Source: Candidatus Parcubacteria bacterium (GTDB taxonomy: Bacteria > Patescibacteriota > Minisyncoccia > UBA6257 > 2-01-FULL-56-20). From it: 49,454 nt of DNA. A program made the position numbers and the translations under genes. The DNA lies in NCBI GenBank assembly GCA_027449645.1, contig DAIDLF010000022.1:1-49454 (forward strand). The letters are read 5' to 3'. Of the stretch, positions 4,591 to 30,432 are shown in pieces. Every line of letters starts with the position of its first letter. The first letter of the stretch is position 1. A model generated the notes under the pieces. The model saw only the letters and a list, made by a program, of their open reading frames with translations. It did no database searches and was not told the origin of the DNA.

Positions 4591-5703
4591 ATGCCAAAGA
4601 CATTCATAATTACCCTCGCGGTGTTCGAGGCATTGCTTATCCTGGTACACCTTGCCGTCTATGCCACGCTTTCGGCGGCGTTCGGCATCGGCGGAGTCTG
4701 GTGGGAAGCGCTTTTTGTCGCCCTCGCCTTCACCTTCGTTTCTGCAAGCGTCCTCGCGCGCTATTTCTCCCATCGCGCGGTCGCATGGTATTACGCATTC
4801 GCCGCCTATTGGTTCGGCCTGGTGCACTTTTTGTTCGGGGGCGGCGTCCTGTTCTTTGCGGCGATGGCGCTTTCTTATGCGTTCGGATGGTATCCGCCGC
4901 TTGCCCTGCTTGGCGCGGCGTGCTTCGGCGCGGCATTCCTGGTCCATAGTTATGCCACGTGGAATAGCGGTCGTGCAGAGATCACGAGGGTCGCGGTGCA
5001 TCTTCCCGGATTGCCGGCCGAGTGGCAGGGGAGGAAGATCGCGTTTGTGAGCGATGTGCACCTGGGGAATGTCCGCAGCGCGGCATTTGCCGCAAAGGTG
5101 GCCCGAAAGATCGCGGCCCTTGCGCCGTGGGCGCTCCTTATCGGCGGCGACCTCTATGACGGCACCCTGTGCAATGAGGAGGCGATGCTTGCGCCATGGC
5201 GGACGCTGATTCCGCAACTTCCCGGAGGAAGCTATTTTGTGACCGGCAACCACGAATATTATCTCCGGAACGGGGAAATCGGCCGGGCCATTGCCGCGAT
5301 CAAGGGCGTCGGTATCCGCGTACTGGACAATGAAGCGATTGACCTGGATGGCATCCAACTTGTGGGCGTGGACGACAAGAGCGTAGCGGAACAGGGATCC
5401 TTTCCGCGCGTGCTTGAAGGGATCCCGCGTGCCGCGGGCGCGCCGAGCATCCTGTTGCGGCACATACCTCTGGAGCTTGAGGTTCCGGCCAAAGAGGGCT
5501 TTTCCCTTGTCCTTTCGGGACACACCCATCAGGGCCAGATTTTTCCGCTCAATCTGCTTACCCGGCGGATCTATCGCGGCTATGATTACGGCCTGAAGCC
5601 GTACGGCGCGATGCAGGTATATACCTCGAGCGGCGTCGGTACGTGGGGGCCGCCGCTGCGGCTCGGGACAAAATCGGAGATCGTGCTGATCGAGTTCTCT
5701 TAG
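4591..5703 (+). CDS. Membrane-anchored metallophosphoesterase (calcineurin-like)
   Basis: 370 aa. About 4 N-terminal TM helices, then SDVHLG, GGDLYDG, GNHEYY and SGHTHQGQ phosphoesterase motifs. Confidence 0.8.
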   Translation: MPKTFIITLAVFEALLILVHLAVYATLSAAFGIGGVWWEALFVALAFTFVSASVLARYFSHRAVAWYYAFAAYWFGLVHFLFGGGVLFFAAMALSYAFGWYPPLALLGAACFGAAFLVHSYATWNSGRAEITRVAVHLPGLPAEWQGRKIAFVSDVHLGNVRSAAFAAKVARKIAALAPWALLIGGDLYDGTLCNEEAMLAPWRTLIPQLPGGSYFVTGNHEYYLRNGEIGRAIAAIKGVGIRVLDNEAIDLDGIQLVGVDDKSVAEQGSFPRVLEGIPRAAGAPSILLRHIPLELEVPAKEGFSLVLSGHTHQGQIFPLNLLTRRIYRGYDYGLKPYGAMQVYTSSGVGTWGPPLRLGTKSEIVLIEFS

Positions 5704-6857
5704 TCGCCGTCTTTGCGGTGCGATTTTCCTTGATAGTATTTCTTCCCTTTCAGTTTGTCCGGCAACATATCGCGTCCGGTATATTTTTCGTAGCCTTTGC
5801 CGTAATCCAGCTCTTTCATGAGCTTGGTGACGGCATTGCGGATCTCGAGCGGGATCGGCAGGTTGCCATGCCGCTTCACGTCATCCAGCGCCTCAAAATA
5901 GGCGTGATAAGCGCTCTTGTCCTTCGGTGCGAGCGAGAGATAGACCGTGCCGTGGGCAAGGTTGATCTGCGCCTCCGGCATGCCGATGGTCTCCACGGCG
6001 CGGAACACGTCGTTTGCCACCACGAGCGCGGTGGGTTGGGCCATGCCGATGTCCTCTGAGGCGAAGATGACCATGCGCCGCGCGATGCACTTCGGATCCT
6101 CGCCGGCATCCACCATGCGCGCCAGATAATAGAGCGCCGCATCCGGCTGGCTTGCCCGCATGCTCTTGATGAAGGCGCTTATCGTGTTGTAGTGTTCCTC
6201 GCCTTTCTTGTCGAAGCGGAGGAACTTGCTTTGGATGGTCTCTTTAAGTGCATTCACGGTGACCTTTCCGTAAAGCTGCTGCGCGTTTTCCAATACCGTG
6301 ATCGCCTGGCGCGCATCGCCGTTCGCCATGCGGACAAGCCAATCGCGCGCCTCGGCGCCCACCTTGATGCCGGTCCTCACAATGATCTTCGCCATGTCTT
6401 CGTCGGTAAGCTCGTGCAAGACGAACACGCGGCATCGCGACAGGAGTGCGGGGATCACTTCAAAGCTCGGGTTTTCCGTGGTCGCCCCGATGAGCACGAG
6501 GTCCCCGCGCTCCACATAAGGGAGCAGGAAATCCTGCTGGGCCTTGTTGAAGCGGTGGATTTCGTCCAGGAAAAGGATCTTCGGCCCAGGGAGAAGCTTG
6601 CCCCGGTTCACGATCTCCTTGATATCGTCCTTGCCCGCCGACACCGCCGAAAGCTCGAAAAGCTGGGCCTTGAGGGAGTGCGCATAGATCTTCGCAAGAG
6701 TCGTCTTTCCCACGCCCGGCGGTCCCCATAAAATAAATGAGAAAAGGTGCCCCTCTTTGATGGCGGTGCGGAGCGGTTTGCCGGGACCCACCAGATGCTC
6801 CTGTCCCACGAACTCGTCCAGGCTCTTGGGCCTGATTTTTGATGCCAGCGGTTCCAT
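5700..6857 (-). CDS. rarA: Replication-associated recombination protein A (AAA+ ATPase)
   Basis: 385 aa. Contains [16 protein letters not shown]..., Walker [26 protein letters not shown] and a MgsA C-terminal domain. Its stop overlaps the convergent stop of the upstream gene. Confidence 0.9.
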
Positions 6858-13212: not shown

Positions 13213-13461
13213 ATGAAAAACCTTTGGCTATTTCAGGAGGGGAGGATCGCGATCCTGTGCAGGCTTGCAGGATGTGATACGGCGCGCGGATGCGATCTTA
13301 CTGCATGCCTGAAGATGAAACGCCCGCTCCTTTCCCATCATCTTGCCGCATTGCGGGACCGCGGCATCATCGAGGAACGCAGGGAGGGACGGGAAAAATA
13401 TTATCGGATCAGGCCGGAGAAAAAGGATTTTGTAACGCAGGTCATCCGTGTCGTCGGATGA
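13213..13461 (+). CDS. Short ArsR/SmtB-family metalloregulator-like HTH protein
   Basis: 82 aa. Contains RIAILCRLAGCDTARGCDLTACLKMKRPLLSHHLAALRDRGIIEERREGREKYYRI, with four Cys residues near the recognition helix. Confidence 0.7.
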   Translation: MKNLWLFQEGRIAILCRLAGCDTARGCDLTACLKMKRPLLSHHLAALRDRGIIEERREGREKYYRIRPEKKDFVTQVIRVVG

Positions 13462-13495
13462 CAGAAAACAACATTAACCATTCATTGTTCCCATC

Positions 13496-14122
13496 ATGAA
13501 CATTGCGTATATTCGGAAGACGGATAAACCTATCAAGGAAGTCGCCGAGCGCCTCAAAGAGGCGTTTGCAAAAGAAAAGATCGAGATCGTGGGCGAGCGC
13601 GAACTGCCGGATCAAAAAGGTTTTTTGCTGTATTTCCTGAAGCCGGAATGGTTTGCCGCCGTCGCGGAGGGCGACCAGAACCTGCTTGGACTCGTGCCGA
13701 GCGTTGCGCTTATCCGGAGGAAGGAGGAAAGGACGGTGATCGGCATCGGGAATCCGCAGATCCTCGCCGGAGGCCCGAATGTGGATGACATCGCTTCCAC
13801 CGTGGAGGAGATGGACCGCGCCCTGCGCGGAGCCATGCAGTTTGCGAGCGGCGCCCCCGAACCGAAAGTGGAGAAGGTCACGTTGTATTCCACGAAGACC
13901 TGTCCGTATTGCCGCATGGAAAAAGATTATCTTGAAAAGCACAAGGTCGCCTTCGATCTGGTCATGGTGGACGAGGACCGCGCCGCCGCCGAGGCGATGA
14001 TCCGCAAGAGCGGACAGACCGGGGTGCCCCAGACAGAAGTGCGCTTTGATGACGGCGAATCGGAGATCATCATGGGATTCGACCGGGATCGCCTCAACGA
14101 ACTGCTTGCCATCGCGGCATAG
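13496..14122 (+). CDS. DUF302-like domain fused to a glutaredoxin/NrdH-like thioredoxin-fold domain
   Basis: 208 aa. The N-terminal half looks like DUF302 (..LVPSVALIRRKEERTVIGIGNP..). The C-terminal half is VTLYSTKTCPYCRMEKDYLEKHKVAFDLV.VD...........SGQTGVPQ. Confidence 0.6.
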   Translation: MNIAYIRKTDKPIKEVAERLKEAFAKEKIEIVGERELPDQKGFLLYFLKPEWFAAVAEGDQNLLGLVPSVALIRRKEERTVIGIGNPQILAGGPNVDDIASTVEEMDRALRGAMQFASGAPEPKVEKVTLYSTKTCPYCRMEKDYLEKHKVAFDLVMVDEDRAAAEAMIRKSGQTGVPQTEVRFDDGESEIIMGFDRDRLNELLAIAA

Positions 14123-14130
14123 CCTGTTCC

Positions 14131-14445
14131 TTATTCGTCGCGGTAGCGCTCGCCGCTTTCCTGCTCCCGCGGGACGCTTACGGCATGCACGGATTGTCCC
14201 TGTGGCGCCGAAGAGGAGGCAACTGCCGACGAGGGAACCGGCGCCGCCGTGGGCGTCGCCATGTCGCCGGCGGCCGTTGCGCTGCCCAGCGAAGATTGCC
14301 CGGCAGGGGCAGTCACGGCGCTTGTCGCCGAAACTGCCGGCGCCACGGTGGTGGTGGCTCCCTGCGCCAGCCCTCCTGCAGCGATCGCGCCGGCGAGCAG
14401 TGCCGCATTCATAAGGAACCAAAGATGGTCTTTCAGGGTTTGCAT
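14131..14445 (-). CDS. Small secreted Ala/Thr/Ser-rich protein
   Basis: 104 aa with a signal-like N-terminus (LWFLMNAALLAGAIAAGGLAQG). It sits 5 nt downstream of the RnfD/FNR gene on the same strand. Coding status is plausible but not certain. Confidence 0.4.
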   Translation of the reverse strand: MQTLKDHLWFLMNAALLAGAIAAGGLAQGATTTVAPAVSATSAVTAPAGQSSLGSATAAGDMATPTAAPVPSSAVASSSAPQGQSVHAVSVPREQESGERYRDE

Positions 14446-14450
14446 GATCG

Positions 14451-15968
14451 TTATGCGAATCCGGGGAAAAAGTCGCTCTTGATCCTCAATCGCGATACGC
14501 CTATCCCGTGCAGGGTCTTTTCATAGGCCTCAACCATGGCGTGCGGTCCCGATATATAGAAAGTGCGGTCCCGGTAGTCGGGTATCTGCTGGGAGATGAG
14601 ATTGGCATCAATCGGCCCGCTATAGATCCCTTCGCGCGAAGCCTTTTCGCCGGTGACGGCATAGAGGGAACGCACGCCCACCTCCTGCGCCGCGCGGTCG
14701 AGGACATCCTCATAGGCAATGTCGGCCGCGGTCTTGTTGGAATAGAGCACCACGATATCGCGGCGTTCTTTTTTATCAAGAAGATAATGGATCATGCTGC
14801 GGAACGGCGTGATCCCGATCCCGCCGGCAATGAAGACCAATTTTTTCTTTTTATCCCTCGGCAGGACAAACCCGCCGGCAAGATGGGCCACGGAAAGGGT
14901 ATCGCCGGTCTTCATGCTGCTCAGGGCGCGTTTGAAGCTGCTGGCCTGCGGATAGAACTTCACGCCGAGGCGGACCTCCGGTTCGGTCGGCGCCGAAGCG
15001 AGCGTGAAGTATCTCCGGTTGCCCCGGTTGTCGGCATGCGGGTGGGGGAGCGTCCATTCCATGTACTGCCCCGGCGCGAACGAGAACCTCCGGTCCGGCG
15101 CGAACACGAAATCATAGACGTCCTTCGCCATTTCCTCCACGCGCTTGAGTCTGAGCATATATCTGCCTTTGGGGCTGACGGCATAGGAGAAGACGTTTCC
15201 GATGAGCAGGGCGAGCTCCGGCGAGAAATAGAAGGAACCAATGTGCACGTTGGGGGCGAACAGGAATCCTACGATGGCGCCGTAGGCGATGCGGAGCTGG
15301 CGGTTGGGCGGCGTAGTCAACGGCTCAGTGAGCATCGCGAAGGCGAAGAAGAAGAAGGAAGAATGGAGAATGGTCTGGAGGATGGCGGAAAACGGGTCGC
15401 CGGAAAGCGACGTGGCGGCAATCGTGGCAAAGGCGACGGCGGCGAAGCTGAGGACGAGATCCTCGCGCTGGATCTTGCGCACCACCATCCATCCTCCCGC
15501 AAGCACGAACGGCAGGAGCCAGAGATTGCCCCCGATCCACCAGGTTGCGGACTGGTTGATGGCAATCGCGGAAAGCGCCACGCCGAACGCGGCAGGATTG
15601 AAGAGGTGCCGTTTGCCGATGGCAAAGAGATATTTGGATGCCATCGCCCACACGGAGGCGAAGACGAGGAATCCAATGCCCGCATAATCGGGCGGTGCCA
15701 CGGGCGTGATGATGAGCGCGAGAATGAATGCCGTGATATAGACCGACTCCACGTTCGTGGCGGCATCAAACATCTTTGCCGCGACCCAGTTTGCCGCCGC
15801 GCAGACGACGGTGATGAGCACGGTGGAAAAGGCGAGTGCGGCAGGATTGAAGGGAAGAAGGCCGAAGAAGCTGAATATGAACGCGACCGCAAGAAGCCCT
15901 GCCACGTAATACAGGACGAGGCGATACATGGTGGTCCGGTTCAGGAAATCATCGATCCAGGTGAACAT
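14451..15968 (-). CDS. Fusion of an RnfD/NqrB-like polytopic membrane domain to an FNR-type FAD/NAD(P)H-binding oxidoreductase
   Basis: 505 aa. The N-terminal half has HLFNPAAFGV and AMLTEPLTTP motifs across about 9 TM helices. The C-terminal half has RRYFTLASAP (RxYS-type FAD motif) and LVFIAGGIGITPFRSM (NAD(P)H motif). Confidence 0.75.
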   Translation of the reverse strand: MFTWIDDFLNRTTMYRLVLYYVAGLLAVAFIFSFFGLLPFNPAALAFSTVLITVVCAAANWVAAKMFDAATNVESVYITAFILALIITPVAPPDYAGIGFLVFASVWAMASKYLFAIGKRHLFNPAAFGVALSAIAINQSATWWIGGNLWLLPFVLAGGWMVVRKIQREDLVLSFAAVAFATIAATSLSGDPFSAILQTILHSSFFFFAFAMLTEPLTTPPNRQLRIAYGAIVGFLFAPNVHIGSFYFSPELALLIGNVFSYAVSPKGRYMLRLKRVEEMAKDVYDFVFAPDRRFSFAPGQYMEWTLPHPHADNRGNRRYFTLASAPTEPEVRLGVKFYPQASSFKRALSSMKTGDTLSVAHLAGGFVLPRDKKKKLVFIAGGIGITPFRSMIHYLLDKKERRDIVVLYSNKTAADIAYEDVLDRAAQEVGVRSLYAVTGEKASREGIYSGPIDANLISQQIPDYRDRTFYISGPHAMVEAYEKTLHGIGVSRLRIKSDFFPGFA

Positions 15969-15992
15969 GGGTTCGTCGTGATGAATATGGGG

Positions 15993-16589
15993 TTATGCTT
16001 TTGCCTGCACGAGCGCCGACCCGAGGGATTTCTGGAACGCCATGCTGGTTTCCGTGGCTCCTGAGACGATGTTCACATTGGCGCTCTGGGCCTGGACGGC
16101 CTCCTGGGTGAGGTACGGCATGGCCTGCTGGTTGATGAAGACCGAGGTGGAATGCGTGTCCGGATACTGCAGGAACTTCACGTCCGTGATCTTTCCTCCC
16201 GAGATCACCGCGGCCACCTGCACGGTGCCATAGTAGGCATCGGCGGCGCTTCCGGTATAGGTGCCGTCTTTATACTGGCCCGTCGGTGCCGGTGCAGGCT
16301 TAGGCGCCGGCGCGGGAGCAGGCGTGGAAACCGGCGCAGGAGTCTGGGTCGTGGCAGGTGCAGGCTTTGTGGCCGCGGCAATGGCGGCCGATGCGCCGGA
16401 ACTGGAACCGGAGCCAGATCCGGAGCTCGGATTTGCATTGGCGCCAACGGGGGTGCTGGCGCTTGTGGTGTCGCTCGTGCCCGCCACGGACGGCGGGAGA
16501 ATGGCAACCGCACTGGAGTTTTGGTTCGCGAACACCGCATAGAGCCCCGATGCAAGGATGATGCCGATGGAAAAAATAAATTTTTTCAT
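15993..16589 (-). CDS. Extracytoplasmic FMN-binding domain protein (RnfG/NqrC-like), long-linker paralog
   Basis: The start MKKFIFSIGIILASGLYA is at 16589. A Ser/Gly/Pro/Ala low-complexity linker follows, then an FMN_bind-type domain with the IVSGATETS flavinylation-type motif. Confidence 0.75.
   Translation of the reverse strand: MKKFIFSIGIILASGLYAVFANQNSSAVAILPPSVAGTSDTTSASTPVGANANPSSGSGSGSSSGASAAIAAATKPAPATTQTPAPVSTPAPAPAPKPAPAPTGQYKDGTYTGSAADAYYGTVQVAAVISGGKITDVKFLQYPDTHSTSVFINQQAMPYLTQEAVQAQSANVNIVSGATETSMAFQKSLGSALVQAKA
16003..16274. repeat. Inverted repeat copy A (272 bp), partner of 18425-18696
   Basis: The reverse complement matches 18425-18696 with only 3 mismatches: 16062/18637, 16101/18598 and 16221/18478. 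Confidence 0.95.
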
Positions 16590-16694
16590 GAAAAAATGGA
16601 TATGCGCCGCTGTTGGATATATATACGCCCGGGCCCTCCGGTTTCGTGCATGGCCTGCACTATGTTCCAAAGCGGGCGCGTATTATATGATGAT

Positions 16695-17312
16695 ATGGAT
16701 AGCATCGCTATTGCCACCCTAATGGATCAATCTTTTATTGCCGCCGCCGCTTCTTTGCAGGGATCCGATGAGCAGCTGGTGGAGCTTGCGCGCGCCGACG
16801 ACCGCCACTTCGAGCAGCTGGTGGACCGCTACGAGGCCAAGCTGCGCCGGTATATCATGCGGTTCATCAACTGCAGCCCCGAAGATGCCGAAGATATCGT
16901 GCAGGATGTGTTTATCAACGCCTACCGCAACCTGAACGGTTTCGATACGGGCCTCAAATTCTCGTCATGGATCTACCGCATTGCCCATAATGAGGCGGTG
17001 AACCATATGCGCCGCATCACCGTGCGGAAGACGGTCGCCGTGGAAGACGACAAGCTTGAAGCGCTCGCGGCGGAAGTCGACGTGGAACACGAACTGCATG
17101 CCAAGCTTGACCACGCAAAGCTCCGGGCCGCCGTGGACCGGCTGGACGCGAAATACCGGGAGGTGCTCGTTTTGCGTTATTTCGAGGATCGGAACTATGA
17201 TGAGATTGCGGACATCCTCCATAAGCCGTCGGGCAGCGTGTCGTCGCTCATCACCAGGGCGAAGCGGCTCCTGCTCAAAGAGGTCGAAGCGGAAAACGCC
17301 GGATTGCTCTAA
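16695..17312 (+). CDS. Sigma-70 family (ECF-type) RNA polymerase sigma factor
   Basis: The start MDSIAIA.. is at 16695. Region 2 is DAEDIVQDVFINAYRNLNGFD....FSSWIYRIAHNEAVN. Region 4 is REVLVLRYFEDRNYDEIADILHKPSGSVSSLITRAKRLL. Confidence 0.85.
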   Translation: MDSIAIATLMDQSFIAAAASLQGSDEQLVELARADDRHFEQLVDRYEAKLRRYIMRFINCSPEDAEDIVQDVFINAYRNLNGFDTGLKFSSWIYRIAHNEAVNHMRRITVRKTVAVEDDKLEALAAEVDVEHELHAKLDHAKLRAAVDRLDAKYREVLVLRYFEDRNYDEIADILHKPSGSVSSLITRAKRLLLKEVEAENAGLL

Positions 17313-17317
17313 ATCAT

Positions 17318-17803
17318 ATGTCTGAAACCAGCAAAAAGATCATCGAGGAAATCCGCGAGCGGCACATCAAGCACCGCCCCAGGTGGTATTTCCTCATACG
17401 GAGCGCTTCCGTATGGACCGCGCTTGCGGCAACCGTCATTTTTGGCGCACTGTCGGTGAGCATCGAGGAATCCATCCTCGAACGCGGACTTTTTGGGCGG
17501 GGGATATTGGACCTGCTTCAGGGCGTCTCCCTCCTGTGGATCGTGTCCGCGCTCGTGTTCATCGTCCTTGCCTTCTTCAATCTCAAACACGTAAAGGAAA
17601 GCTACCGGTACCGCGCATGGTGGATCGTCCTCGGCGCCGTGGTCCTTGTGGCCACGTTCGCCACGCTCTTCTGCCATGAGGGCATCGGAAGCCAGGTCGA
17701 ATCGGCGCTGGAACACAATGCGTTTTATCATCACGCCCTGCATGGCATCGATGGATATCAAATTTACCCGGCACCAGGAGTCGGAGATCCACACGGTCTT
17801 TGA
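17318..17803 (+). CDS. Membrane protein downstream of the sigma factor (candidate anti-sigma factor)
   Basis: 161 aa and about 4 TM helices. It starts 6 nt after the sigma stop. There is no recognisable zinc-binding anti-sigma (ZAS) motif, so the anti-sigma role is inferred from position alone. Confidence 0.45.
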   Translation: MSETSKKIIEEIRERHIKHRPRWYFLIRSASVWTALAATVIFGALSVSIEESILERGLFGRGILDLLQGVSLLWIVSALVFIVLAFFNLKHVKESYRYRAWWIVLGAVVLVATFATLFCHEGIGSQVESALEHNAFYHHALHGIDGYQIYPAPGVGDPHGL

Positions 17804-18275
17804 CGTCACCCTGCTCCTCAAGGGGCTCCATGCCGCCGCAGAACTGCTGGGCGGCCTCCTTCTGTATGCGGTCGGCCCGGGCGGCGTGGTGCGCGTCGCC
17901 CGCTATTTTCTTGGGGACGAGCTCCAGGAACAGCCGCGCGACGCCGTGGCGAATTACTTTTTGCGGCTTGCCGAATCGCTCGGAGGGACCGCGCACGCAT
18001 TTGCGGTGTTATATCTTTTGATCCACGGCGTGATCAACATGGCGATCGTGATAGCGCTCTGGAAGGAAAAGCTCTGGGCGTATCCGGCGTCGCTCGCGGC
18101 GCTCATGGCGTTCGTAGTCTATCAGTGCTATCTGCTTTCCTTCGGATTCTCGTTCTGGATGTTCGCCTTTACCGTGCTTGATATCGCCATTGTGCTCCTT
18201 GTATGGCATGAATACGGCGTGCTCAAACGGCGCCGGAAGGCGGCACATGCACGAAACGCGGCGCACGGTGCGTAG
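17742..18275 (+). CDS. DUF2127-like membrane protein
   Basis: In-frame ATG codons at 17742 and 17751. Contains ...VFDVTLLLKGLHAAAELLGGLLLY... with 4 TM helices. It overlaps the 3' end of the preceding ORF. Confidence 0.55.
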   Translation: MASMDIKFTRHQESEIHTVFDVTLLLKGLHAAAELLGGLLLYAVGPGGVVRVARYFLGDELQEQPRDAVANYFLRLAESLGGTAHAFAVLYLLIHGVINMAIVIALWKEKLWAYPASLAALMAFVVYQCYLLSFGFSFWMFAFTVLDIAIVLLVWHEYGVLKRRRKAAHARNAAHGA

Positions 18276-18304
18276 TAAGGGAATACCCATCATCCGCATT
18301 CACC

Positions 18305-18706
18305 ATGAAAAAATATCTCATTGGCCTTGCCGTGCTGTTCCTTGCCGGGTTTGCCTATTACGCGAGCCGGCATGTGGTTTCCGCTCCGGCCACGCAGGCC
18401 TTCACCAAGAGTCCTTCGGTCACCTATAAAGACGGCACCTATACCGGAAGCGCCGCCGATGCCTACTATGGCACCGTACAGGTGGCCGCGGTGATCTCGG
18501 GAGGAAAGATCACGGACGTGAAGTTCCTGCAGTATCCGGACACGCATTCCACCTCGGTCTTCATCAACCAGCAGGCCATGCCGTACCTCACCCAGGAAGC
18601 CGTCCAGGCCCAGAGCGCCAATGTGAACATCGTCTCGGGAGCCACGGAAACCAGCATGGCGTTCCAGAAATCCCTCGGGTCGGCGCTCGTGCAGGCTTCC
18701 GCTTAG
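18305..18706 (+). CDS. Extracytoplasmic FMN-binding domain protein, short-linker paralog
   Basis: 133 aa with an N-terminal TM or signal sequence. Its C-terminal 91 aa are identical to those of the 15993-16589 product. Confidence 0.8.
   Translation: MKKYLIGLAVLFLAGFAYYASRHVVSAPATQAFTKSPSVTYKDGTYTGSAADAYYGTVQVAAVISGGKITDVKFLQYPDTHSTSVFINQQAMPYLTQEAVQAQSANVNIVSGATETSMAFQKSLGSALVQASA
18425..18696. repeat. Inverted repeat copy B (272 bp), partner of 16003-16274
   Basis: See copy A. All three differences are synonymous third-codon positions. Confidence 0.95.
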
Positions 18707-18721
18707 CTTCTTTGCAAAGGC

Positions 18722-20257
18722 TTAGACCAGGCTTTTGCCGGTCATGCTGTCTGGCTGGGCAATCCCCAGTATGGCGAGGACAGTCGGCGCAATATCGGCG
18801 AGCGATCCTCGGCGGTGCGCATCGGCAAGCGGGATGCGCGCATCGGGGGAGACCACGATGCAGGGGACCACGCTCAGGGTGTGCGCCGTATGGCGCTCCC
18901 CGGTCTCGGGATCCACATTCATCTCCGCATTCCCGTGATCTGCAGTGACCACCGCCGCGCCGCCTTTCGCGAGTACGGCGTCCACCACCCGCGCGAGCTC
19001 GCGGTCTACGGTCTCCACGGCGGTCACGATGGCCGGGCGGTTCGCCGTATGTCCGACCATGTCGGCGTTCGCGAAGTTCATCACGATAAAATCGTCGCCG
19101 GCCTGAATGCGCTCGATCGCCTTGTCCGCGATCTCTTTCGCGCGCATCTCCGGCGCGAGGTCGTGCGTCGGGATATCTTTGCGGCTCGGAATAAGGAAAA
19201 AGTGCTCCTGCGGATAAGGGGTTTCATGGCCGCCGTCAAAGAAATAGGTGACGTGCGCGTATTTTTCGGTCTCGGCGATATGCGACTGCACAAGGCCCGC
19301 GTCGGAGAGTTCCTTGGCGAGCGATGTCTCGGCGCGCGACTGGGGGAACGCGACGTCGGTCTTCAGATTCTTGTCATATTCCGTGAGCGTCGCCACGCGG
19401 AGATCGAGTTCCTGCGCGCGGGCAAGGATCTTTTCCGTAAGCTGGCGCGCGCGGTCCGGACGGAAGTTGAAAAAGAGCAGGGCATCGTGCTTTGCGATCG
19501 TGCGCGGCATGCCGTCCTTGTCCAAAAACACCATCGATTCAAGATGTTCGTCCACGGCGCCTTCCTGGTATCGTGCCGTGAGCACCTCGGAAGGCCGGCG
19601 GCCCTGATAGCGCTCCGGCGCCTCGCCCTCGAACATGGCCGACTCGCTCTTTCCGATGCGGTCCCAATTCTTGTCCCGGTCCATGGCATAGAAGCGGCCA
19701 TGCACGCTTACCACGGCATCCGCGCCGAACCCGAGCTCCTCAAGCAGGGCCTCAAGCGATGCAAGGTGGGCGGCGGCGCTCTGCGGCGGCAGGTCGCGCC
19801 CGTCGGTGATCGCGTGGATGGCAACCCGCGTCACCCCTGCCGCTTTCGCGGCACGGAGGAACGCGTGCAGGTGTTCCTGGTGGCTGTGCACCCCGCCCGA
19901 TCCCACAAGCCCCACGGCGTGGAGCGTGGAATGGTAGCGCTTCACGTGATCAAACAGCCGGACAAACGCCGGGTTCTCGGCGAACCCGCCCGTCCGGGCG
20001 GCTTTGCTGATCTTTACGAGGTCCACGTCCATCACGCGGCCGGCGCCCATCGTCATATGACCGACCTCGCTGTTGCCGATCTGGCCTGCCGGAAGGCCCA
20101 CCTGTTCCTCGCTTGCATCGAGGAAGGCGTGGGGATATTTTGCCATGAGCGCATCAAAGCACGGCGTCTTCGCTTCAGCGATGGCGTTATGTTCGGCATT
20201 TTCGCGATAGCCCCATCCATCGAGGATGATGAGGCAGACTGGTCGTGTGAAGGCCAT
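18722..20257 (-). CDS. gpmI: 2,3-bisphosphoglycerate-independent phosphoglycerate mutase
   Basis: 511 aa. Contains LIILDGWG, NSEVGHMTMGAGR, GGVHSH and TADHGNAE motifs. Confidence 0.92.
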   Translation of the reverse strand: MAFTRPVCLIILDGWGYRENAEHNAIAEAKTPCFDALMAKYPHAFLDASEEQVGLPAGQIGNSEVGHMTMGAGRVMDVDLVKISKAARTGGFAENPAFVRLFDHVKRYHSTLHAVGLVGSGGVHSHQEHLHAFLRAAKAAGVTRVAIHAITDGRDLPPQSAAAHLASLEALLEELGFGADAVVSVHGRFYAMDRDKNWDRIGKSESAMFEGEAPERYQGRRPSEVLTARYQEGAVDEHLESMVFLDKDGMPRTIAKHDALLFFNFRPDRARQLTEKILARAQELDLRVATLTEYDKNLKTDVAFPQSRAETSLAKELSDAGLVQSHIAETEKYAHVTYFFDGGHETPYPQEHFFLIPSRKDIPTHDLAPEMRAKEIADKAIERIQAGDDFIVMNFANADMVGHTANRPAIVTAVETVDRELARVVDAVLAKGGAAVVTADHGNAEMNVDPETGERHTAHTLSVVPCIVVSPDARIPLADAHRRGSLADIAPTVLAILGIAQPDSMTGKSLV

Positions 20258-23591: not shown

Positions 23592-23659
23592 AATAAGAAA
23601 GGAGGATGCGCGCGCAGGCGTCGTTGATTTATCCTTTGATCGGAAAGGGGAAGACACCT

Positions 23660-25081
23660 ATGACGCAAGAGCAAGCTCTCAACATCCTCAAACTCGGCAA
23701 AAATGTTTTCCTTACCGGTGCGCCAGGCGCCGGAAAGACATATCTCCTTGCACAGTATATAGACTTTCTCCGATTGAACGATGTGAACCCCGCGATCACG
23801 GCCTACACGGGCATCGCGGCAAGCCATCTTAACGGGAAAACCCTCCATTCCTGGGCGGGGCTTCGGCCGGGCCCGCTTCGTGCGTTCGCGCAGGAGCGCG
23901 ACAGGGTGCGCAACAATCAGTTTTTGACCGCAAAGATTACACGGGCAAAGGTGCTCATCATTGATGAGATCTCCATGCTCAGCCCCGAACTTTTTGAACA
24001 GGTTGATTTCATCTGTAAAACTGCGCGGAACTCCATGGAACCTTTCGGAGGGTTGCAGCTCATATGCTCGGGCGATTTCTTCCAGATACCCCCGGTCAAC
24101 CAGGAAAACGGGCGGTTCGTACTCGATAGCGGGATATGGGAGGAGGCAAAAATGAAAATATGCTATCTCCATGAGCAGCACCGGCAAGGAGACCACAAAC
24201 TTCTCGGAATACTTGAGGAAATTCGGAGAGGGGATGTGGGCGCGGATGCCATTGCGCTCCTCAAAAGCAGGGTCGGGGCAAAAATCGATGCGCCGATCGG
24301 CGTCGCCCGGCTCTATACCCATAATGAAGACGTCGATGAGATCAACGAAAGGGAACTCCGCAAACTTACCGGCCCCGAGATCATCTATGAGGTGCATTCA
24401 ACCGGAGACGCCAAGGTCATCGAAAAGCTCAAAAAGGATTACCGGATAAAAAATATCAGCCTCAAAAAGGGCGCGCGGGTGATGTTCACCAGAAATAATG
24501 AGGGGATGGGCTATGTGAACGGGACCCTGGGAGAGATAGTTGATTTTGACGGGGACGGCGATCCCGTAGTGATGACCTTTGACCAGCAGAGGATCGCCGT
24601 GGCGCGAGAGCAATGGGATCTTGAGGACAACGGAGAAACAAAGGCGTCGGTTTGGCAGGTCCCCTTGAGGCTGGCATGGGCTATCACGGTCCATAAAAGC
24701 CAGGGCATGACGCTCGACGCTGCAGAGATAGAGCTTTCGCGCGCATTTGAAGAGGGCATGGGTTATGTGGCGCTTTCCCGGGTGAAACGATTGGAGAACC
24801 TATCCCTTATCGGATGGAATGATGTCGCGCTCAAGGTGAATGACCGCATCAAAAGGATCGATGATGAATTCCTGGAGCAATCAATTGAAACGGAGAATTA
24901 TTTGCACGGTCTTGGCGCCGAGCGCGTTGACCGTTTACAGAGGGAGTTTGTGGCGGCCATGAAAGAAGAAGGAGAGGCCCCAAAAGTGCAAGCCGGGGCA
25001 TTCCATTATGAACCGGACGAAGTTCCCGTCATTGATTTTGAGGGATACGGATCAATCAACGCCGAGGATATCCCTTTCTAG
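23660..25081 (+). CDS. PIF1/RecD-like SF1 DNA helicase
   Basis: Walker A is LTGAPGAGKTYLL and Walker B is LIIDEISML. Also contains GDFFQIPPV and HKSQGMTLD. The ATG at 23660 is preferred over the 23606 start in the ORF track. Confidence 0.8.
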   Translation: MTQEQALNILKLGKNVFLTGAPGAGKTYLLAQYIDFLRLNDVNPAITAYTGIAASHLNGKTLHSWAGLRPGPLRAFAQERDRVRNNQFLTAKITRAKVLIIDEISMLSPELFEQVDFICKTARNSMEPFGGLQLICSGDFFQIPPVNQENGRFVLDSGIWEEAKMKICYLHEQHRQGDHKLLGILEEIRRGDVGADAIALLKSRVGAKIDAPIGVARLYTHNEDVDEINERELRKLTGPEIIYEVHSTGDAKVIEKLKKDYRIKNISLKKGARVMFTRNNEGMGYVNGTLGEIVDFDGDGDPVVMTFDQQRIAVAREQWDLEDNGETKASVWQVPLRLAWAITVHKSQGMTLDAAEIELSRAFEEGMGYVALSRVKRLENLSLIGWNDVALKVNDRIKRIDDEFLEQSIETENYLHGLGAERVDRLQREFVAAMKEEGEAPKVQAGAFHYEPDEVPVIDFEGYGSINAEDIPF

Positions 25082-25142: not shown

Positions 25143-25622
25143 TCAAGAAGTGTAACGGACCGCAGTTTCCGTGTTTACGGCAGCCTGCACGGAGAGGATC
25201 TCGCGCGAGCACTTCATCATGCCCGCAACCCGAAGGTCTGTCTGCATGACACTCCTCGCGAGATCGAAAACGTGTTTTTCGAAGGCATGGAGCTGGCCCT
25301 TGGTCAGGCAATGCTTCAGTCTCGCATTGACCGAGTACTGATGGCTGCTCAACTGCTCCCCTCTAGTAATTTCAAGGGGGTTATTCATGCCATGGTCGCG
25401 CCAAGGGTGCTCTTCCTCTGCAATAGCAACATAGTTTGCTACTATTGCATCAAGGCGGCACTCCTCGATCTTTGTCCCCTCGCCAGTTCGCGAGTATAGT
25501 TGCGCCCGACGCTCGTAGGTGGCCACAGCCTCATTGGCCATGGTGATCACGAATGTCGCGCCCACGCAATAGCTCCGATTCTGTGGGGACACTCCGTATA
25601 TTAGTTCGTTTAGGGTCCTCAT
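25143..25622 (-). CDS. Hypothetical protein (159 aa), island-associated
   Basis: Strong SD (AAGGAGGG) 8 nt upstream of the ATG at 25622. GC looks intermediate by eye. No recognised domain. Confidence 0.6.
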   Translation of the reverse strand: MRTLNELIYGVSPQNRSYCVGATFVITMANEAVATYERRAQLYSRTGEGTKIEECRLDAIVANYVAIAEEEHPWRDHGMNNPLEITRGEQLSSHQYSVNARLKHCLTKGQLHAFEKHVFDLARSVMQTDLRVAGMMKCSREILSVQAAVNTETAVRYTS

Positions 25623-25707
25623 CGAGAAACCCTCCTTTGCTTGAACTTGCTGCTGAGTTGAAAATCAGCTGTTTATAATATTATCACTATTCAGCGATAC
25701 TGTCAAT

Positions 25708-25737
25708 AGTGCTGGCCGGCTTGGACGATGTTCGAAC
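25708..25737 (-). repeat. Degenerate copy of the tRNA-Gln 3' end and trailer (candidate distal att remnant)
   Basis: AGTGCTG..CCGG..GGA..TTCGAAC here compares with AGTGCTGCCGGGCAGGGATTCGAAC at 30381-30405. About 22 positions match, with two indels, in the same orientation. Confidence 0.3.
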
Positions 25738-25757
25738 TGTATTGTGGTATAATACAG
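25737..25757 (+). promoter_or_regulatory. Extended -10 promoter (TGGTATAAT) embedded in a 7-bp inverted repeat
   Basis: TGGTATAAT at 25745-25753. CTGTATT at 25737-25743 pairs with AATACAG at 25751-25757. It lies upstream of the AT-rich + strand ORFs. Confidence 0.5.
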
Positions 25758-25871
25758 GCATAGGGGCTTTAGGTAGATTTTACATATAATCTATTGAAAA
25801 GTGGATATTATGCGCTTAAAAGATTGGCATTGTCTTCAAGTCGCGATGCTTGTAATCATTACCGTTGAGCG

Positions 25872-26093
25872 ATGAAAGAGAAGAATAAAAAATTTTGGCG
25901 GTTTATTTTGGGGGTTGGTGCAATATCTTTTTTAGATCAGATAATAGAAAATAAAGAGGAGGAAATCAAAGAATTAAGGGCGAAACTTGAAGAAGCTCGC
26001 GAAAAAAAAGAACCACAGTTTGGTACATATCTCTATGAAACCTATGGCATAGAAGATGAGAATGACCTAGATGCGTGGTTTAATGAAGAATAG
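25872..26093 (+). CDS. Small hypothetical protein with one TM helix and an acidic coiled-coil tail (73 aa)
   Basis: ATG start, AT-rich codons. Contains FWRFILGVGAISFL, then EEEIKELRAKLEEAREKK. Confidence 0.5.
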   Translation: MKEKNKKFWRFILGVGAISFLDQIIENKEEEIKELRAKLEEAREKKEPQFGTYLYETYGIEDENDLDAWFNEE

Positions 26094-26204
26094 TTTCGGT
26101 TCGATAGGTTGAAGTACAGACTGGTTTGGAGATGTCTAGTATTAAGGTTTAATAAAAATGCAACAAGGAACTTAGAATTATAATCAATTATAGATTAAAA
26201 AATT

Positions 26205-26453
26205 ATGATATTTACTGATTTTGTTGAAAGGCTACTTCAGTTAAATGTTGATCGCGACAAGATATTTCTATTGGAATCCTTTGCCGCCAAACACGCAGAA
26301 CAAACCTTTTTAAAGGATGGAGAGCCTAAGGAAACCACTGCTCAAATTAGCATGAGAATTGAATTTTCAAGGGGGAAAATTTTGAGCGAATTTGAAGAAA
26401 ATATTAAAAATGGAAAATCGGTAGAGTATTTAGTCGATTTGTTATTAAAATAG
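26205..26453 (+). CDS. Small hypothetical protein (82 aa)
   Basis: ATG start, same strand and composition as its neighbours. No recognised domain. Confidence 0.45.
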   Translation: MIFTDFVERLLQLNVDRDKIFLLESFAAKHAEQTFLKDGEPKETTAQISMRIEFSRGKILSEFEENIKNGKSVEYLVDLLLK

Positions 26454-26492
26454 TTTCCCATTTTTTGGATTGTTTCTAGGTTTATATAAGGT

Positions 26493-26972
26493 ATGAACGA
26501 CTATAAAGCTGTGATAAAATCAGGCATATTACCAATAGAAAGCAATCCCGAATTGTTAGTGGAATACGGCAGAGCTTTTGCGCGGATTAACACTCTTGAA
26601 TATTTACTCGAAGAGTTAATCATTGTTAAAGGGGGCTTGGGATCGGTCAAAAAAGATCTGAGGGAGAAGTTGGTTAATAAAAAAATGTTAGGTCAAAAAA
26701 TAGAGCTTGCAGCTACCTTGCTCGAGCCAACGCTTATAAGTAAGCTTCGGTCTTTAAATGATAAGCGAATTCTGTTAGCTCATAATGCCACGGCTCAAGA
26801 AATAAATAATTCTGGTGACGAACAGAAACCGGGAAATTATGTTATTGGGATAGGCGAGAAGCAAGAAATTTTAACAAATAAATTTTTATCAGATATCAGT
26901 AATCTAGCTCAAGAACTTTTAGTAGATTTCCACGCAGCCTTTCTAAAGGGAACCAAATTTGAACTAAAGTAA
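26493..26972 (+). CDS. Hypothetical all-alpha protein with an HEPN-like Rx4H motif (159 aa)
   Basis: LRSLNDKRILLAHNAT resembles the R-x4-H (R.K.AH-type) catalytic motif of HEPN/Abi RNases. The size and helical character also fit. Confidence 0.4.
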   Translation: MNDYKAVIKSGILPIESNPELLVEYGRAFARINTLEYLLEELIIVKGGLGSVKKDLREKLVNKKMLGQKIELAATLLEPTLISKLRSLNDKRILLAHNATAQEINNSGDEQKPGNYVIGIGEKQEILTNKFLSDISNLAQELLVDFHAAFLKGTKFELK

Positions 26973-27878
26973 TCAGGAATACCCCGCAAGCATCCGCTTA
27001 TACGTGAGTGCTGTTGAAACAAGCGCACTGTTTTCTAAAACGAGCAGGGCAACGAGTACATTCTCAGGCTTCACGCCGTGCATCGAACCGAGAAAGTAGC
27101 GAGATAAACTCGTAATGCCATAAGCAGTATCAAATGGATCGTAGGGGATCATATCTTCGTATTTTCCAGCATCAAGGTCTTTTGCGAGAAGTTTCAGGTC
27201 AAGTCGCTCGAAGGGTTCGCAGCCAAGCTTTGTTTTTATTGATTCACCAAAAGAAGGGAAGCCCCTTTTAATATATTGAAACATGAAGCTCCCGATGGTA
27301 TTAAGTTTTATCTTTTTTATTTTGCCTGTATTTGTAATAAGAACCTCATCGGAAAGGAAAGCGAGTGATCGTCCAAGATCGGTATCGGTCGCTTTCAGCT
27401 GTGCGAAGGTTATTACGCTTCCAACAAGCATACTACTCACAACGTCCATCGTGTTGCGTTTCATATATTTGAAGAATGCCTCCTTTGCTTCTCGAACATC
27501 CGAAGCGAGTTGGCGTTTCTTCTTCATTCTGAGGTCTTCCGCAACGCATTCAAGAGCAAGATCAAAATCTTCGTTGTTGTCAGCATGATCGATGATATAG
27601 TCGATCTGGAAATGAAGTATGTCCTTCATCATATTATTTAAGGCGTGTTCATTGTCGCCCTCGGGAATCCTAAGCTTACCCGCAAGCCGTGAGAAGCTTT
27701 TTTCAAGATTTTCCCTCGATATGCGCTTTTCTTGATCGTCTTTGCAGCGTCCTTTTTGATATTCGGAACAGATATAATAAGCCCCGCTCTTGGTGAGGGT
27801 ATGGCCTGAAACGGCAAATTTAAGCACGCCTTTAGGAAAATAGGAGGGTGCTTTGGGGGTGAAGGCTGATCGAGGCAT
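26973..27878 (-). CDS. Hypothetical protein whose N-terminus resembles the zinc-ribbon/coiled-coil segment of a large serine recombinase (possible remnant or fusion)
   Basis: FPKGVLKFAVSGHTLTKSGAYYICSEYQKGRCKD....LAGKLRIPE here compares with FPLRGFMTCDVCGCMLTATLQKGKYVYYYCTNGKKICDQ....LFGQLRIDE in the 28927-30432 product. The first Cys pair is lost here. Confidence 0.45.
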   Translation of the reverse strand: MPRSAFTPKAPSYFPKGVLKFAVSGHTLTKSGAYYICSEYQKGRCKDDQEKRISRENLEKSFSRLAGKLRIPEGDNEHALNNMMKDILHFQIDYIIDHADNNEDFDLALECVAEDLRMKKKRQLASDVREAKEAFFKYMKRNTMDVVSSMLVGSVITFAQLKATDTDLGRSLAFLSDEVLITNTGKIKKIKLNTIGSFMFQYIKRGFPSFGESIKTKLGCEPFERLDLKLLAKDLDAGKYEDMIPYDPFDTAYGITSLSRYFLGSMHGVKPENVLVALLVLENSALVSTALTYKRMLAGYS

Positions 27879-27966
27879 AGAGTTACACGCCCTTTATACC
27901 TCAAAATCCTCATTTTTACACGTTCGCTCATCCACTACCGACAAACCGCCCCCGTTGTAGGTAGTG

Positions 27967-28176
27967 ATGCCCAATTTTAGCCAAGAACTCATATCCGAGG
28001 TGATCGCCTATTTTGGCGAGCGGGAGGACCGCCTTATAGTCCCCGAAGAAGCGGAGGCGTATTTGGCATCCTTAGCCGAGCTGTATTGGTGCTTCACGGA
28101 GTCGATGAGGCGCAGGGAGTTGGGCAGGAGGGCCGATCCGCCGCAGGCGGGCGGCCCAAACCTTCCCCTGACTTGA
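27967..28176 (+). CDS. Small hypothetical protein upstream of Rep (69 aa)
   Basis: ATG at 27967; the ORF track starts it at a GTG at 27964. Its stop TGA at 28174-28176 lies inside the putative nick-site motif. Confidence 0.35.
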   Translation: MPNFSQELISEVIAYFGEREDRLIVPEEAEAYLASLAELYWCFTESMRRRELGRRADPPQAGGPNLPLT

Positions 28177-28197
28177 TATCCCCACATAGTTGTAATC
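28168..28197 (+). other. Candidate rolling-circle origin or nick site (phiX174-like ACTTGATAT core)
   Basis: CTGACTTGATATCCCCACATAGTTGTAAT lies immediately 5' of the Rep ATG. As I recall it, the phiX174 origin is CAACTTGATATTAATAACACTATAG. Confidence 0.4.
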
Positions 28198-28198
28198 C

Positions 28199-28930
28199 AT
28201 GGGAATTCATTTTAGAAAATATGGCAAAGTCATCGAGATCACGGAAATCGAGCACGAGCCGTCCAAAGTACGCGTATATGCTCCGCGAATCCGCCCTGAT
28301 GTTCACGGGTCTCGGCGATCAGATAGTATTCGAAGGACAAGGACAATATGTCTGTGGCGCGTGTTTGCTGGCGTTGAAGAATTTGGAAGCCCGCTCCTCG
28401 TTACTCTTACCTTCGACGGAGACGCCTCGGATGCCTCTTATGCAAACGATACCCTTCGCCGCTTCCAAGTGCGGTTGCGCGATCAATATCCTGAAGCCCA
28501 ATCCCTCTTTGTTCCCGAATTATCCCCACGAGGACGCATCCACTTTCATGGTTTGCTCTTTAACCTGCCAATGCATCTCGGCGATACGCGCCAGGGTAGA
28601 CGGATCGTGGAGCATGGCACGGAACGAAAAGACAGGATTATCGCCCAGCTTTGGGGCGAAGGTTTTGTGGATGTCCGAAAAACTGATGGTTCTCCAAGGT
28701 TGGGATATTATATCGCCAAGTACATCACAAAGGGGTCAGAGCAAACCCTCTTTAACGCCATGAGGATTCTTCGTATCTCTCGCGGATTCCCTCGGCAGAT
28801 TGAGATCAGTGGCCCCATGGCCGAGGAGCTTAAACGCCGTTACGACCCGAAAACACCAATCAAGGAGTGGGAGGGTAATAATATCTTCCTTGGCAAGATC
28901 AAACGGAAAACGTATATTCAAGACACATGA
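28199..28930 (+). CDS. HUH-superfamily rolling-circle replication initiator (phiX174 gpA / Microviridae VP4-like Rep)
   Basis: 243 aa. Motif 1 is LLVTLTF, motif 2 is RIHFHGLLF (HUH), and motif 3 is GYYIAKYITKG (YxxKY; compare phiX gpA FYVAKYVNK). Also contains LWGEGFVDV. Confidence 0.75.
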   Translation: MGIHFRKYGKVIEITEIEHEPSKVRVYAPRIRPDVHGSRRSDSIRRTRTICLWRVFAGVEEFGSPLLVTLTFDGDASDASYANDTLRRFQVRLRDQYPEAQSLFVPELSPRGRIHFHGLLFNLPMHLGDTRQGRRIVEHGTERKDRIIAQLWGEGFVDVRKTDGSPRLGYYIAKYITKGSEQTLFNAMRILRISRGFPRQIEISGPMAEELKRRYDPKTPIKEWEGNNIFLGKIKRKTYIQDT

Positions 28931-30432
28931 ACTATATTCTCTATTGCCGCAAATCGTCTGAGGCAGAAGATCGCCAAGTCCTTTCTCTTGATTCTCAAGA
29001 GACGGAGCTGAAGCGCCTCGCGGCGGCGGAAGGATATAAGATCATCGAGGTATATCGCGAATCCATGTCGGCAAAGGCTCCGAATCGGCCGCTCTTTGAT
29101 GGGATGATGAATCGGATCGAGAAAGGGGAGGCGCAAGGTGTACTTTGTTGGAAGCTCGATCGTCTCGCACGCAATCCCGTGGACGGCGGCAAGATAAGCT
29201 GGCTTCTTCAGCGCGGCGTGATCCAATCCATTCAAACTCATGACCGCGTGTATCGTCCTTCTGATAATGTCCTTATGATGGCCGTCGAGTTCGGTATGGC
29301 GAACCAATACGTTCTTGATCTAACCGCGAACGTGAAGCGCGGTAATCGGGCGAAGCTTGAAAAAGGTGGCTGGCCGAATATGGCCCCCTATGGATATTGG
29401 AATGATAAGAATGATAAATCGGTGAAAATCGTTTCCGAAAACGCGGCCGTGGTGCGCCGTGCTTTTGAACTGCACGCTACGGGCTTATACGATCTCCGCG
29501 AAACTGCGGATCGGCTCTACGAAGAAGGGCACCGCACACCGAGCGGCAAGCGGGTCGCCAAAAGCATGGTGCATAAAATCCTCCGTAATTCATTCTACTG
29601 TGGCATTATGCTCAAGGACGGCGCGTATTATGCGGGCAAGCACGAGCCGATCGTCTCAAAAGACCTTTTTGATAAGGCGAATGACGTGCTTGATGGAAAG
29701 AATCATTCGAAAGTCCAAAAACATTTCTTCCCACTCCGTGGCTTTATGACCTGCGATGTATGCGGCTGTATGCTCACCGCTACGCTCCAAAAGGGAAAAT
29801 ACGTATATTACTATTGCACGAACGGAAAAAAGATTTGTGATCAGCGCAAAAAACACCTTACTGCCAAGGATGCCGAAATTCTGATCGGCTCGCTTTTTGG
29901 CCAGTTACGGATCGACGAGCGCATTTTGGATATCGCTTTTAAGGCCTACGAGGAGAGGTTTAAATACGAGGAGGTTTCCGTGGAGGATCGCCGTCAAATC
30001 GTCCAAAATTCGATCTCTGCGCTTGAGGAGCGACAGAATCGCCTCGTGGATAGTTTTGTGGCGGGAATCACGCCTAGCGGCGTATATGAGCAAAAAATGA
30101 CCACCCTGAGGAACGAGAGGGTTGCGCTTCAAACTCAGCTTCAGCAGATCGGACAAGGGAATGATCCGTCAGAAATCACTTTCGAACAAATCAAAAACGT
30201 ATTTTTGACAGCAAATTCAATAGCTAATTCGTTCCTCGATGGATCGGATGAAGAAAAACGAGAGTATGCTCAAATTTTACTTTCGAACGTTTCGTTGAGA
30301 GATCAAAAAATCCAAAAATATCAGTTCAAACCCGTCTATCAGGCCATCGCAAATATACCAAAAAAAGACGATTTTGAGAGAGTGCTGCCGGGCAGGGATT
30401 CGAACCCCGATAGATGGATTCAGAGTCCATAG
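28927..30432 (+). CDS. Large serine recombinase (integrase-type)
   Basis: 501 aa. The catalytic N-terminus is ILYCRKSSEAEDRQ...LDRLARN. A recombinase domain follows, then a zinc ribbon (CDVCGC...YYYCTNGKKIC) and a coiled coil. An ATGA start/stop overlap couples it to Rep. The last 16 codons overlap tRNA-Gln. Confidence 0.85.
   Translation: MNYILYCRKSSEAEDRQVLSLDSQETELKRLAAAEGYKIIEVYRESMSAKAPNRPLFDGMMNRIEKGEAQGVLCWKLDRLARNPVDGGKISWLLQRGVIQSIQTHDRVYRPSDNVLMMAVEFGMANQYVLDLTANVKRGNRAKLEKGGWPNMAPYGYWNDKNDKSVKIVSENAAVVRRAFELHATGLYDLRETADRLYEEGHRTPSGKRVAKSMVHKILRNSFYCGIMLKDGAYYAGKHEPIVSKDLFDKANDVLDGKNHSKVQKHFFPLRGFMTCDVCGCMLTATLQKGKYVYYYCTNGKKICDQRKKHLTAKDAEILIGSLFGQLRIDERILDIAFKAYEERFKYEEVSVEDRRQIVQNSISALEERQNRLVDSFVAGITPSGVYEQKMTTLRNERVALQTQLQQIGQGNDPSEITFEQIKNVFLTANSIANSFLDGSDEEKREYAQILLSNVSLRDQKIQKYQFKPVYQAIANIPKKDDFERVLPGRDSNPDRWIQSP

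Follow-up and report, generated by a model that had tools for sequence, protein, structure and literature searches.

Why should two genes for flavin mononucleotide (FMN)-binding proteins, read in opposite directions on either side of a sigma factor cassette, have an almost identical stretch of coding sequence at their 3' ends? The question is raised by a 49,454-nt stretch of DNA from a Candidatus Parcubacteria bacterium (contig DAIDLF010000022.1, assembly GCA_027449645.1), which was analysed over its full length and is referred to here as the window. The two genes, FMN1 and FMN2, flank an extracytoplasmic function (ECF) sigma cassette in opposite orientation, and FMN1 lies beside a gene for an RnfD/NqrB-like membrane domain fused to an FNR-type NAD-binding domain (RnfD/FNR). 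Based on comparisons with related contigs, we consider it probable that FMN1 and FMN2 are an old pair of paralogs subject to concerted evolution driven by homologous recombination, with occasional inversion of the DNA between them.

The gene layout was obtained from a listing of open reading frames (ORFs) and from Pfam scans of the window. The locus consists of the following features:

14451-15968, minus strand: RnfD/FNR, an RnfD/NqrB-like membrane domain fused to an FNR-type NAD-binding domain; outer left flank (Pfam)
15993-16589, minus strand: FMN1, 198 aa (ORF and Pfam PF04205)
16003-16274, minus strand: left arm of the repeat, coding for the FMN-binding domain of FMN1 (repeat alignment, Pfam PF04205)
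16275-18424, no strand: segment bracketed by the arms, 2150 nt, potentially invertible, with both N-terminal coding parts, the divergent intergenic region and the sigma cassette
16590-16694, no strand: divergent intergenic region between FMN1 and the sigma gene, 105 nt, presumed to hold the promoters of both transcription units
16695-17312, plus strand: ECF-type sigma factor (Sigma70_r2 and r4_2 domains)
17318-17803, plus strand: membrane protein of 161 aa, a putative anti-sigma factor by position only, with no Pfam family match
17751-18275, plus strand: DUF2127 membrane protein, start chosen by comparison with the ortholog on contig L045
18305-18706, plus strand: FMN2, 133 aa (ORF and Pfam PF04205); orthologs P0002, P0005-P0011 and P0121
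18425-18696, plus strand: right arm of the repeat, FMN-binding domain of FMN2, FMN1-type in sequence (repeat and ortholog alignment)
18722-20257, minus strand: phosphoglycerate mutase (iPGM), outer right flank, convergent with FMN2 (Pfam)

In a repeat search, 16003-16274 and 18425-18696 were found as reverse-complement arms of 272 nt each, 99% complementary and 2150 nt apart, and as the sole long repeat across the whole 49-kb window. The number of exact inverted 119-mers expected by chance in the window is ~1e-58, which excludes a chance origin of the arms. Base-by-base alignment yielded exactly three mismatches (16062/18637, 16101/18598 and 16221/18478), all of them synonymous third codon positions, located in Val, Glu and Ser codons when read in coding orientation. 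On both sides the similarity ends abruptly. The inner end is the codon for the Y of 'YKDGTYTG', and the outer end precedes the stop by two codons, with tails of ...VQAKA* (KA*) in one gene and ...VQASA* (SA*) in the other. The two proteins have 91 identical residues in common, which cover the Pfam FMN_bind domain (PF04205). In front of it, FMN1 features an N-terminal hydrophobic segment and a Pro/Ala/Ser/Gly-rich linker of ~80 aa, while FMN2 has an N-terminal hydrophobic segment and a short linker of ~15 aa, followed by a domain identical to that of FMN1. An earlier note on this DNA had given the same repeat coordinates and mismatch positions, had called all three differences synonymous third positions and had described the identical 91-aa domain and the gene layout; all of this was reproduced exactly.

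The age of the pair can be judged from its relatives. A protein search with FMN2 returned two classes. Members of the short class (~134 aa) align to FMN2 over the full length and have a common short N-terminus (MKKYLIG...SAP.TQ...K.PSV.YK), while those of the long-linker class (180-200 aa) align to it in the domain only. On contigs L037-L040, L041/L042 and L044, an FMN1 gene with a long linker is located upstream of RnfD/FNR, next to a divergent sigma cassette, and an FMN2 gene with the short N-terminus is present in the opposite orientation. In L037-L040, FMN1 and RnfD/FNR are read in one direction, and sigma factor, membrane protein, FMN2 and DUF2127 in this order in the other; L041/L042 and L044 have the same core layout, with FMN2 inverted and 5-6 kb away. 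The domain sequences of the two paralogs are 68% (L037), 71% (L041) and 81% (L044) identical at the nucleotide level, compared to 99% in the window, and third-position identity is just 33-42% in L037 and L041. These values indicate that FMN1 and FMN2 form an old paralog pair. Since the FMN1 and FMN2 domains of the relatives are deeply diverged, the 99% identity in the window cannot stem from a recent duplication. The earlier note had named a very recent duplication as one way to explain the arms, in which the FMN-binding domain or FMN1 would have been copied into a new site that held no older paralog. Such an event would yield arms that are 99% identical and have sharp ends. It was nevertheless rejected as very improbable, because the relatives possess FMN2 orthologs that match in N-terminus and in placement with respect to the sigma cassette but have domains only 68-71% identical to those of their own FMN1.

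Two orthologs with the FMN2-type N-terminus, P0002 and P0009, have FMN2-type domains as expected; RnfD/FNR was looked for downstream of both genes and was absent in both. A different paralog layout was observed in a more distant relative (L014:5722-6782), in which two FMN_bind genes are arranged in tandem and in direct orientation upstream of RnfD/FNR.

If the pair is old, the identity of the domains needs another source, and its direction can be read from the orthologs. Both window copies show nucleotide identities of 74-75% to FMN1 of L037 and of 62-63% to FMN2 of L037. Similarly, they are 72-73% identical to FMN1 of L048/L049 and 67% identical to FMN2 of L041. Because both copies are nearer to FMN1-type than to FMN2-type orthologs, FMN1 was the donor and FMN2 the recipient of a gene conversion. 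The conversion tract in the window fills the entire common domain and ends where the homology ends. L044, from another Paceibacterota genome, has a partial tract of its own (L044:3909-4189 versus L044:10154-10434), which comprises ~150 nt at ~99% identity, including an exact run of 100 nt; outside of it, identity drops to 64% in the first third of the domain, and the tail has diverged. The L044 tract is independent of that in the window, so that conversion between FMN1 and FMN2 is recurrent. The FMN1 ORF of L044 is intact, although the stored gene calls split it into two fragments.

Contig L035 represents a strain that is 94% identical to the window at the nucleotide level and has the same structure in the same orientation. 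The number of synonymous substitutions per synonymous site (dS) between the two window paralogs is 0.049 (three differences). Between the window and the L035 ortholog it amounts to 0.14-0.16 (8-9 differences), and other and neighbouring genes yielded values of 0.08-0.25. A Poisson test of paralog against ortholog synonymous differences gave P ~0.02. Site 21 of the repeat is C in the two copies of the window and G in the two copies of L035. The paralog dS below the ortholog dS and the concerted state of site 21 suggest that homogenisation is recent and continued after the split of the window and L035 strains, although the counts are small.

Conversion is one trace of recombination between the arms; the other is the arrangement of the genes around them. 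The 90% identity cluster of FMN2 contains one further member, P0121, which is encoded on contig L045. L045 (ENA, MEGAHIT) and the 100% identical L046 (Logan, k=31) feature, in this order, the N-terminal part of FMN1 on the minus strand, the sigma factor, the membrane protein, DUF2127, a gene on the plus strand that joins the FMN2 N-terminus to an FMN1-type domain, and RnfD/FNR on the plus strand. In this exchanged arrangement a tight operon of five co-directional genes is formed. L045 aligns to window positions 16515-18696 and, from the start of the domain, also to 16274 -> 14914 in reverse; only the reverse alignment runs past the domain, into the spacer between FMN1 and RnfD. The bracketed segment is hence carried with the RnfD/FNR flank at the FMN2 end and not at the FMN1 end. 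L047, from another sample, extends the L045 sequence into genes syntenic with the left flank of the window (small protein, glutaredoxin, ArsR, DoxD). The L045 lineage is represented by samples ERZ27236928, SRR13178629 and SRR22746138.

A second case was found on L050, L051 and L052, which originate from three assemblers (protein P0006; samples ERZ27256801, JGI 3300031672 and SRR8554485). Here a short-anchor N-terminus is followed by an FMN1-type domain and an FMN1-type tail (QAKS), directly upstream of RnfD/FNR, and the domain start is precisely where homology to the FMN1 gene of L049 sets in. In this lineage, the sequence available upstream of the FMN gene amounts to ~100 nt and does not match DUF2127. 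The sequences make the exchange of the junction clear, from which an inversion of the cassette may be inferred. The three contigs start within ~20 nt of one another, ~85-105 nt upstream of the short-anchor FMN gene (L050:1-105, L051:1-104, L052:1-85), and this common start hints at a repeat or structural breakpoint at that position.

In a tree of RnfD/FNR, L045/L047 is the sister of the window (86% aa identity), while L050 groups with L048/L049 (90-92% aa identity). FMN1 is located upstream of RnfD/FNR in the window, in L035, L048 and L049 and in all outgroups. As the L045 and L050 lineages fall into different RnfD/FNR clades, each beside relatives with FMN1 in the upstream position, the exchange took place at least twice, in separate lineages.

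Taken together, these comparisons bear on what the earlier note had proposed about recombination. Its suggestion of ongoing gene conversion is supported, the pair being old, diverged in relatives and homogenised in the window. The dS between the paralogs inside the repeat, one of the checks it had named, fell below that to the L035 ortholog. A second check, repeat divergence and orientation in related genomes, gave arms of 68-81% identity in L037/L041/L044 and an exchanged arrangement in two lineages. The predicted geometry of an inversion is supported by the comparisons. The other N-terminal variant stands in front of RnfD/FNR in both L045/L046/L047 and L050/L051/L052, and the sigma cassette was seen on the other side of the junction only in L045.

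A chimeric join or a falsely duplicated segment was also weighed as a source of the structure. Contigs of relatives often end at or in the repeat: L035 breaks off 49 nt into the right arm and L045 40 nt into the arm, and L047 begins 24 nt ahead of the FMN stop codon. For the window, we nevertheless regard the probability of such an artefact as close to negligible, because three mismatches and distinct tails set the arms apart, neither gene is disrupted, an independent assembly of a strain with 6% divergence (L035) gave the same structure, and several further assemblies retain the paired layout. In the exchanged lineages, chimeras are unlikely since the k=31 Logan contigs L046 and L052 traverse the whole domain unbroken and without branching. 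The tendency of metagenome contigs of this group to break at the FMN-binding domain means that gene order across this domain has to be read with care.

Concerted evolution with occasional inversion would account for both traces as follows. FMN1 with its long tether and FMN2 with its short tether are old paralogs for extracytosolic FMN-binding proteins, placed in opposite orientation around the ECF sigma cassette and next to RnfD/FNR. General homologous recombination, presumably dependent on RecA, would act on the sole stretch common to both genes, the domain-coding part of ~275 nt. A non-reciprocal outcome would be gene conversion, by which the FMN2 domain was overwritten with the FMN1 domain in the lineage of the window. 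A reciprocal outcome would invert the 2.15-kb segment, so that RnfD/FNR would no longer follow FMN1 but would stand last in the operon of sigma factor, membrane protein, DUF2127 and FMN2; this exchanged arrangement became established at least twice in related lineages. Given its start just 29 nt past DUF2127, FMN2 probably closes the sigma operon. Judged from the sequences, inversion should leave both proteins essentially unchanged except for K/S in the tail, so that operon linkage and not the protein repertoire would change. With arms that are 99% identical, conversion and inversion are both mechanistically possible in the window genome at present.

Several points weigh against this explanation. 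The counts behind a conversion later than the strain split are small (3 synonymous differences against 8-9, and a single doubly informative site). Each exchanged lineage yielded one of the two new junctions, a pattern which a transposed or duplicated RnfD/FNR operon could in principle also have produced; a protein search for the reciprocal junction with the FMN1 N-terminal fragment of L045 gave no matches. The exchange in the L050 lineage, for which upstream context is lacking, could be something other than an inversion. RecA is not encoded in the window, and its role is inferred. Finally, the paired layout is not universal and the second paralog is not always kept, as no FMN2 was found within 10 kb on L049. 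This contig (L049:7441-9985) otherwise shows the window-type layout, with DUF2127, membrane protein and sigma factor divergent from FMN1 and RnfD/FNR.

The same recombination could also serve as a phase-variable switch, which the earlier note had likened to a shufflon. RecA-driven inversion of 16275-18424 would then be frequent and reversible in populations without a dedicated invertase, selection would maintain it as a toggle of RnfD/FNR between the FMN1 promoter (long-tether FMN protein) and the end of the ECF sigma operon (short-tether FMN protein), and conversion would keep the arms identical. Several findings are in line with a switch: close lineages acquired the alternative arrangement on at least two occasions, the arms are held at 99% identity over the whole homologous stretch, both N-terminal modules and both presumed promoters lie inside the segment, and the exchanged arrangement of L045 forms the tight operon described above. 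However, we consider a switch unlikely. The window and its 94% relative L035 have one and the same orientation, the alternative being seen in related lineages and not in these two strains. The unbranched k=31 contigs imply that a second copy is diverged, absent or thinly covered, so that the exchanged arrangements look fixed and not flipping. Moreover, the arms of most relatives (68-73% identity) are too diverged for frequent recombination. The hybrid proteins predicted after inversion (FMN1 N-terminus with domain and SA tail, FMN2 N-terminus with domain and KA tail, and the L035-type hybrid) were absent by exact look-up in a collection of 15 billion proteins, a weak negative, as the window strain is represented there only by the window contig. 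An exact look-up of the FMN1 and FMN2 proteins of the window on other contigs returned no record. A consensus scan of the locus for promoters and terminators gave weak matches alone, near the expectation from shuffled sequence, and no promoter is claimed. With respect to concerted evolution with occasional inversion, the locus probably represents an instance of an already known process, and a switch function is possible. If both orientations do coexist in populations, the locus would be a rare invertase-free regulatory switch, in a member of the candidate phyla radiation.

Inverted repeats that bracket a segment with promoters or 5' parts of genes are also typical for shufflons and for the Hin/Gin and fim systems. 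These systems rely on short recombinase-specific sites and an adjacent dedicated recombinase, whereas the arms in the window are 272-nt repeats of paralogous coding sequence. No recombinase or invertase gene was detected in or beside the segment in Pfam scans of the genes from 13213 to 20257.

At the sap (S-layer) locus of Campylobacter fetus, inversion is RecA-dependent and switching at the population level is documented. Similar to the window, inversion takes place there without an invertase between long homologous stretches in opposed paralogs, a promoter is located on the invertible segment, and inversion alters which gene arrangement is expressed. The sap genes have a conserved 5' part with the variable part outside, so that a different protein is made. 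In the window, the conserved part is the 3' domain, both proteins are made either way and operon linkage alone changes.

Concerted evolution and inversion of the tufA and tufB genes were reportedly the subject of earlier studies, by Abdulkarim and Hughes in 1996 and by Hughes in 2000. In Salmonella, homologous recombination makes this pair evolve in concert (Paulsson et al. 2017, PMC5485169; Brandis et al. 2019, PMC6735719), and up to 50% of the recombination events result in an inversion (PMC6735719). In both systems inverted paralogous coding sequences are kept near-identical and conversion tracts are bounded by the limits of homology; the same recombination inverts the intervening DNA, which creates hybrid operons and pairs promoters with other downstream genes. 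As for tufA/tufB, the copies in the window are older than their similarity suggests, the paralogs are closer to each other than the orthologs at silent sites, and the tract ends are sharp. There are also differences. Only a 272-nt domain is common to FMN1 and FMN2 and not whole genes, and the arms are 2.15 kb apart, whereas the tuf genes are far apart on the chromosome. The N-terminal modules of FMN1 and FMN2 differ, so that an inversion places a different type of tether as well as a different promoter ahead of the downstream gene. The exchanged FMN arrangement has become established in natural lineages, whereas inverting the DNA between tufA and tufB comes at a cost.

The proteins involved point to a role in electron transfer. 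RnfD/FNR matches PF03116 (N-terminal, NqrB/RnfD-like; E 3e-9) and PF00175 (C-terminal, NAD-binding; E 6e-15), both above the gathering score, and FMN1 is located 24 nt upstream of it. As is characteristic of NQR/RNF-like clusters, PF04205 matches are present within the cluster, in both FMN1 and FMN2. An 'SGAT' motif is visible in the domain sequence of both proteins, which we take to be the ApbE target (flavinylation-type) motif of FMN-binding domains. ApbE itself had no match among the ORFs scanned, a result that refers to the window alone and not to the whole genome. NQR/RNF-like flavinylation clusters are thought to transfer electrons of cytosolic NAD(P)H onto an FMN domain on the extracytosolic side; Méheust et al. 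(2021, PMC8238504) report them mainly from Actinobacteria and from the candidate phyla radiation. The locus resembles these clusters in that an RnfD/NqrB-like domain is fused to an NqrF-type NAD-binding domain and is encoded together with an extracytosolic FMN-binding protein. A second, inverted FMN paralog, an ECF sigma cassette and recombination between paralogs are features of the window which the study, as far as consulted, does not describe (PMC8238504).

The locus would be a clean natural case in which gene conversion and inversion are two outcomes of one recombination process. Its setting is the small genome of uncultivated Patescibacteria, in which recombination acts on a single protein domain and not on whole genes. 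The consequence would be a re-wiring of operon linkage in extracytosolic flavin-based electron transfer, with RnfD/FNR joined to a long- or a short-tether FMN protein, and placed in or out of an ECF sigma operon.

Outside of the locus, the window contains several genes with a relation to DNA recombination, repair or mobility:

5700-6857: RarA/MgsA
23606-25081: PIF1-like helicase
28199-28930: Rep-like gene in a low-GC island (PF23343)
38882-39409: RecO (N-terminal domain match)

Recombination functions are therefore present, as judged from the RecO gene. The window contains a single recombinase, a large serine enzyme encoded at 28927-30432 (Resolvase, Recombinase and Zn_ribbon_recom). It was considered as a candidate for acting on the arms and was rejected, as it is 10 kb distant and belongs to a low-GC island of its own, together with the Rep gene and beside a tRNA gene. 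The island (25600-30455) has a GC content of 0.34-0.51, compared to ~0.6 nearby, and adjoins tRNA-Gln (30384-30455, minus strand). A flanking direct repeat of the island was not found. It is probably an integrated mobile element and looks unrelated to the repeat.

Two observations concern individual genes of the locus. A gene in the same position as that of the 161-aa membrane protein is conserved in relatives. In the window, this putative anti-sigma gene overlaps DUF2127 by 53 nt (17751-17803); L045 has this overlap as well (1460-1512), suggesting that translation of the two genes is coupled. The FMN1 linker evolves fast between the two strains of 94% identity (16275-16589 versus L035:1886-2194), with many substitutions and indels. 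Overall, FMN1 of the window and of L035 are 89.5% identical at the amino acid level, and the FMN domain is without any amino acid change (non-synonymous substitution rate, dN = 0).

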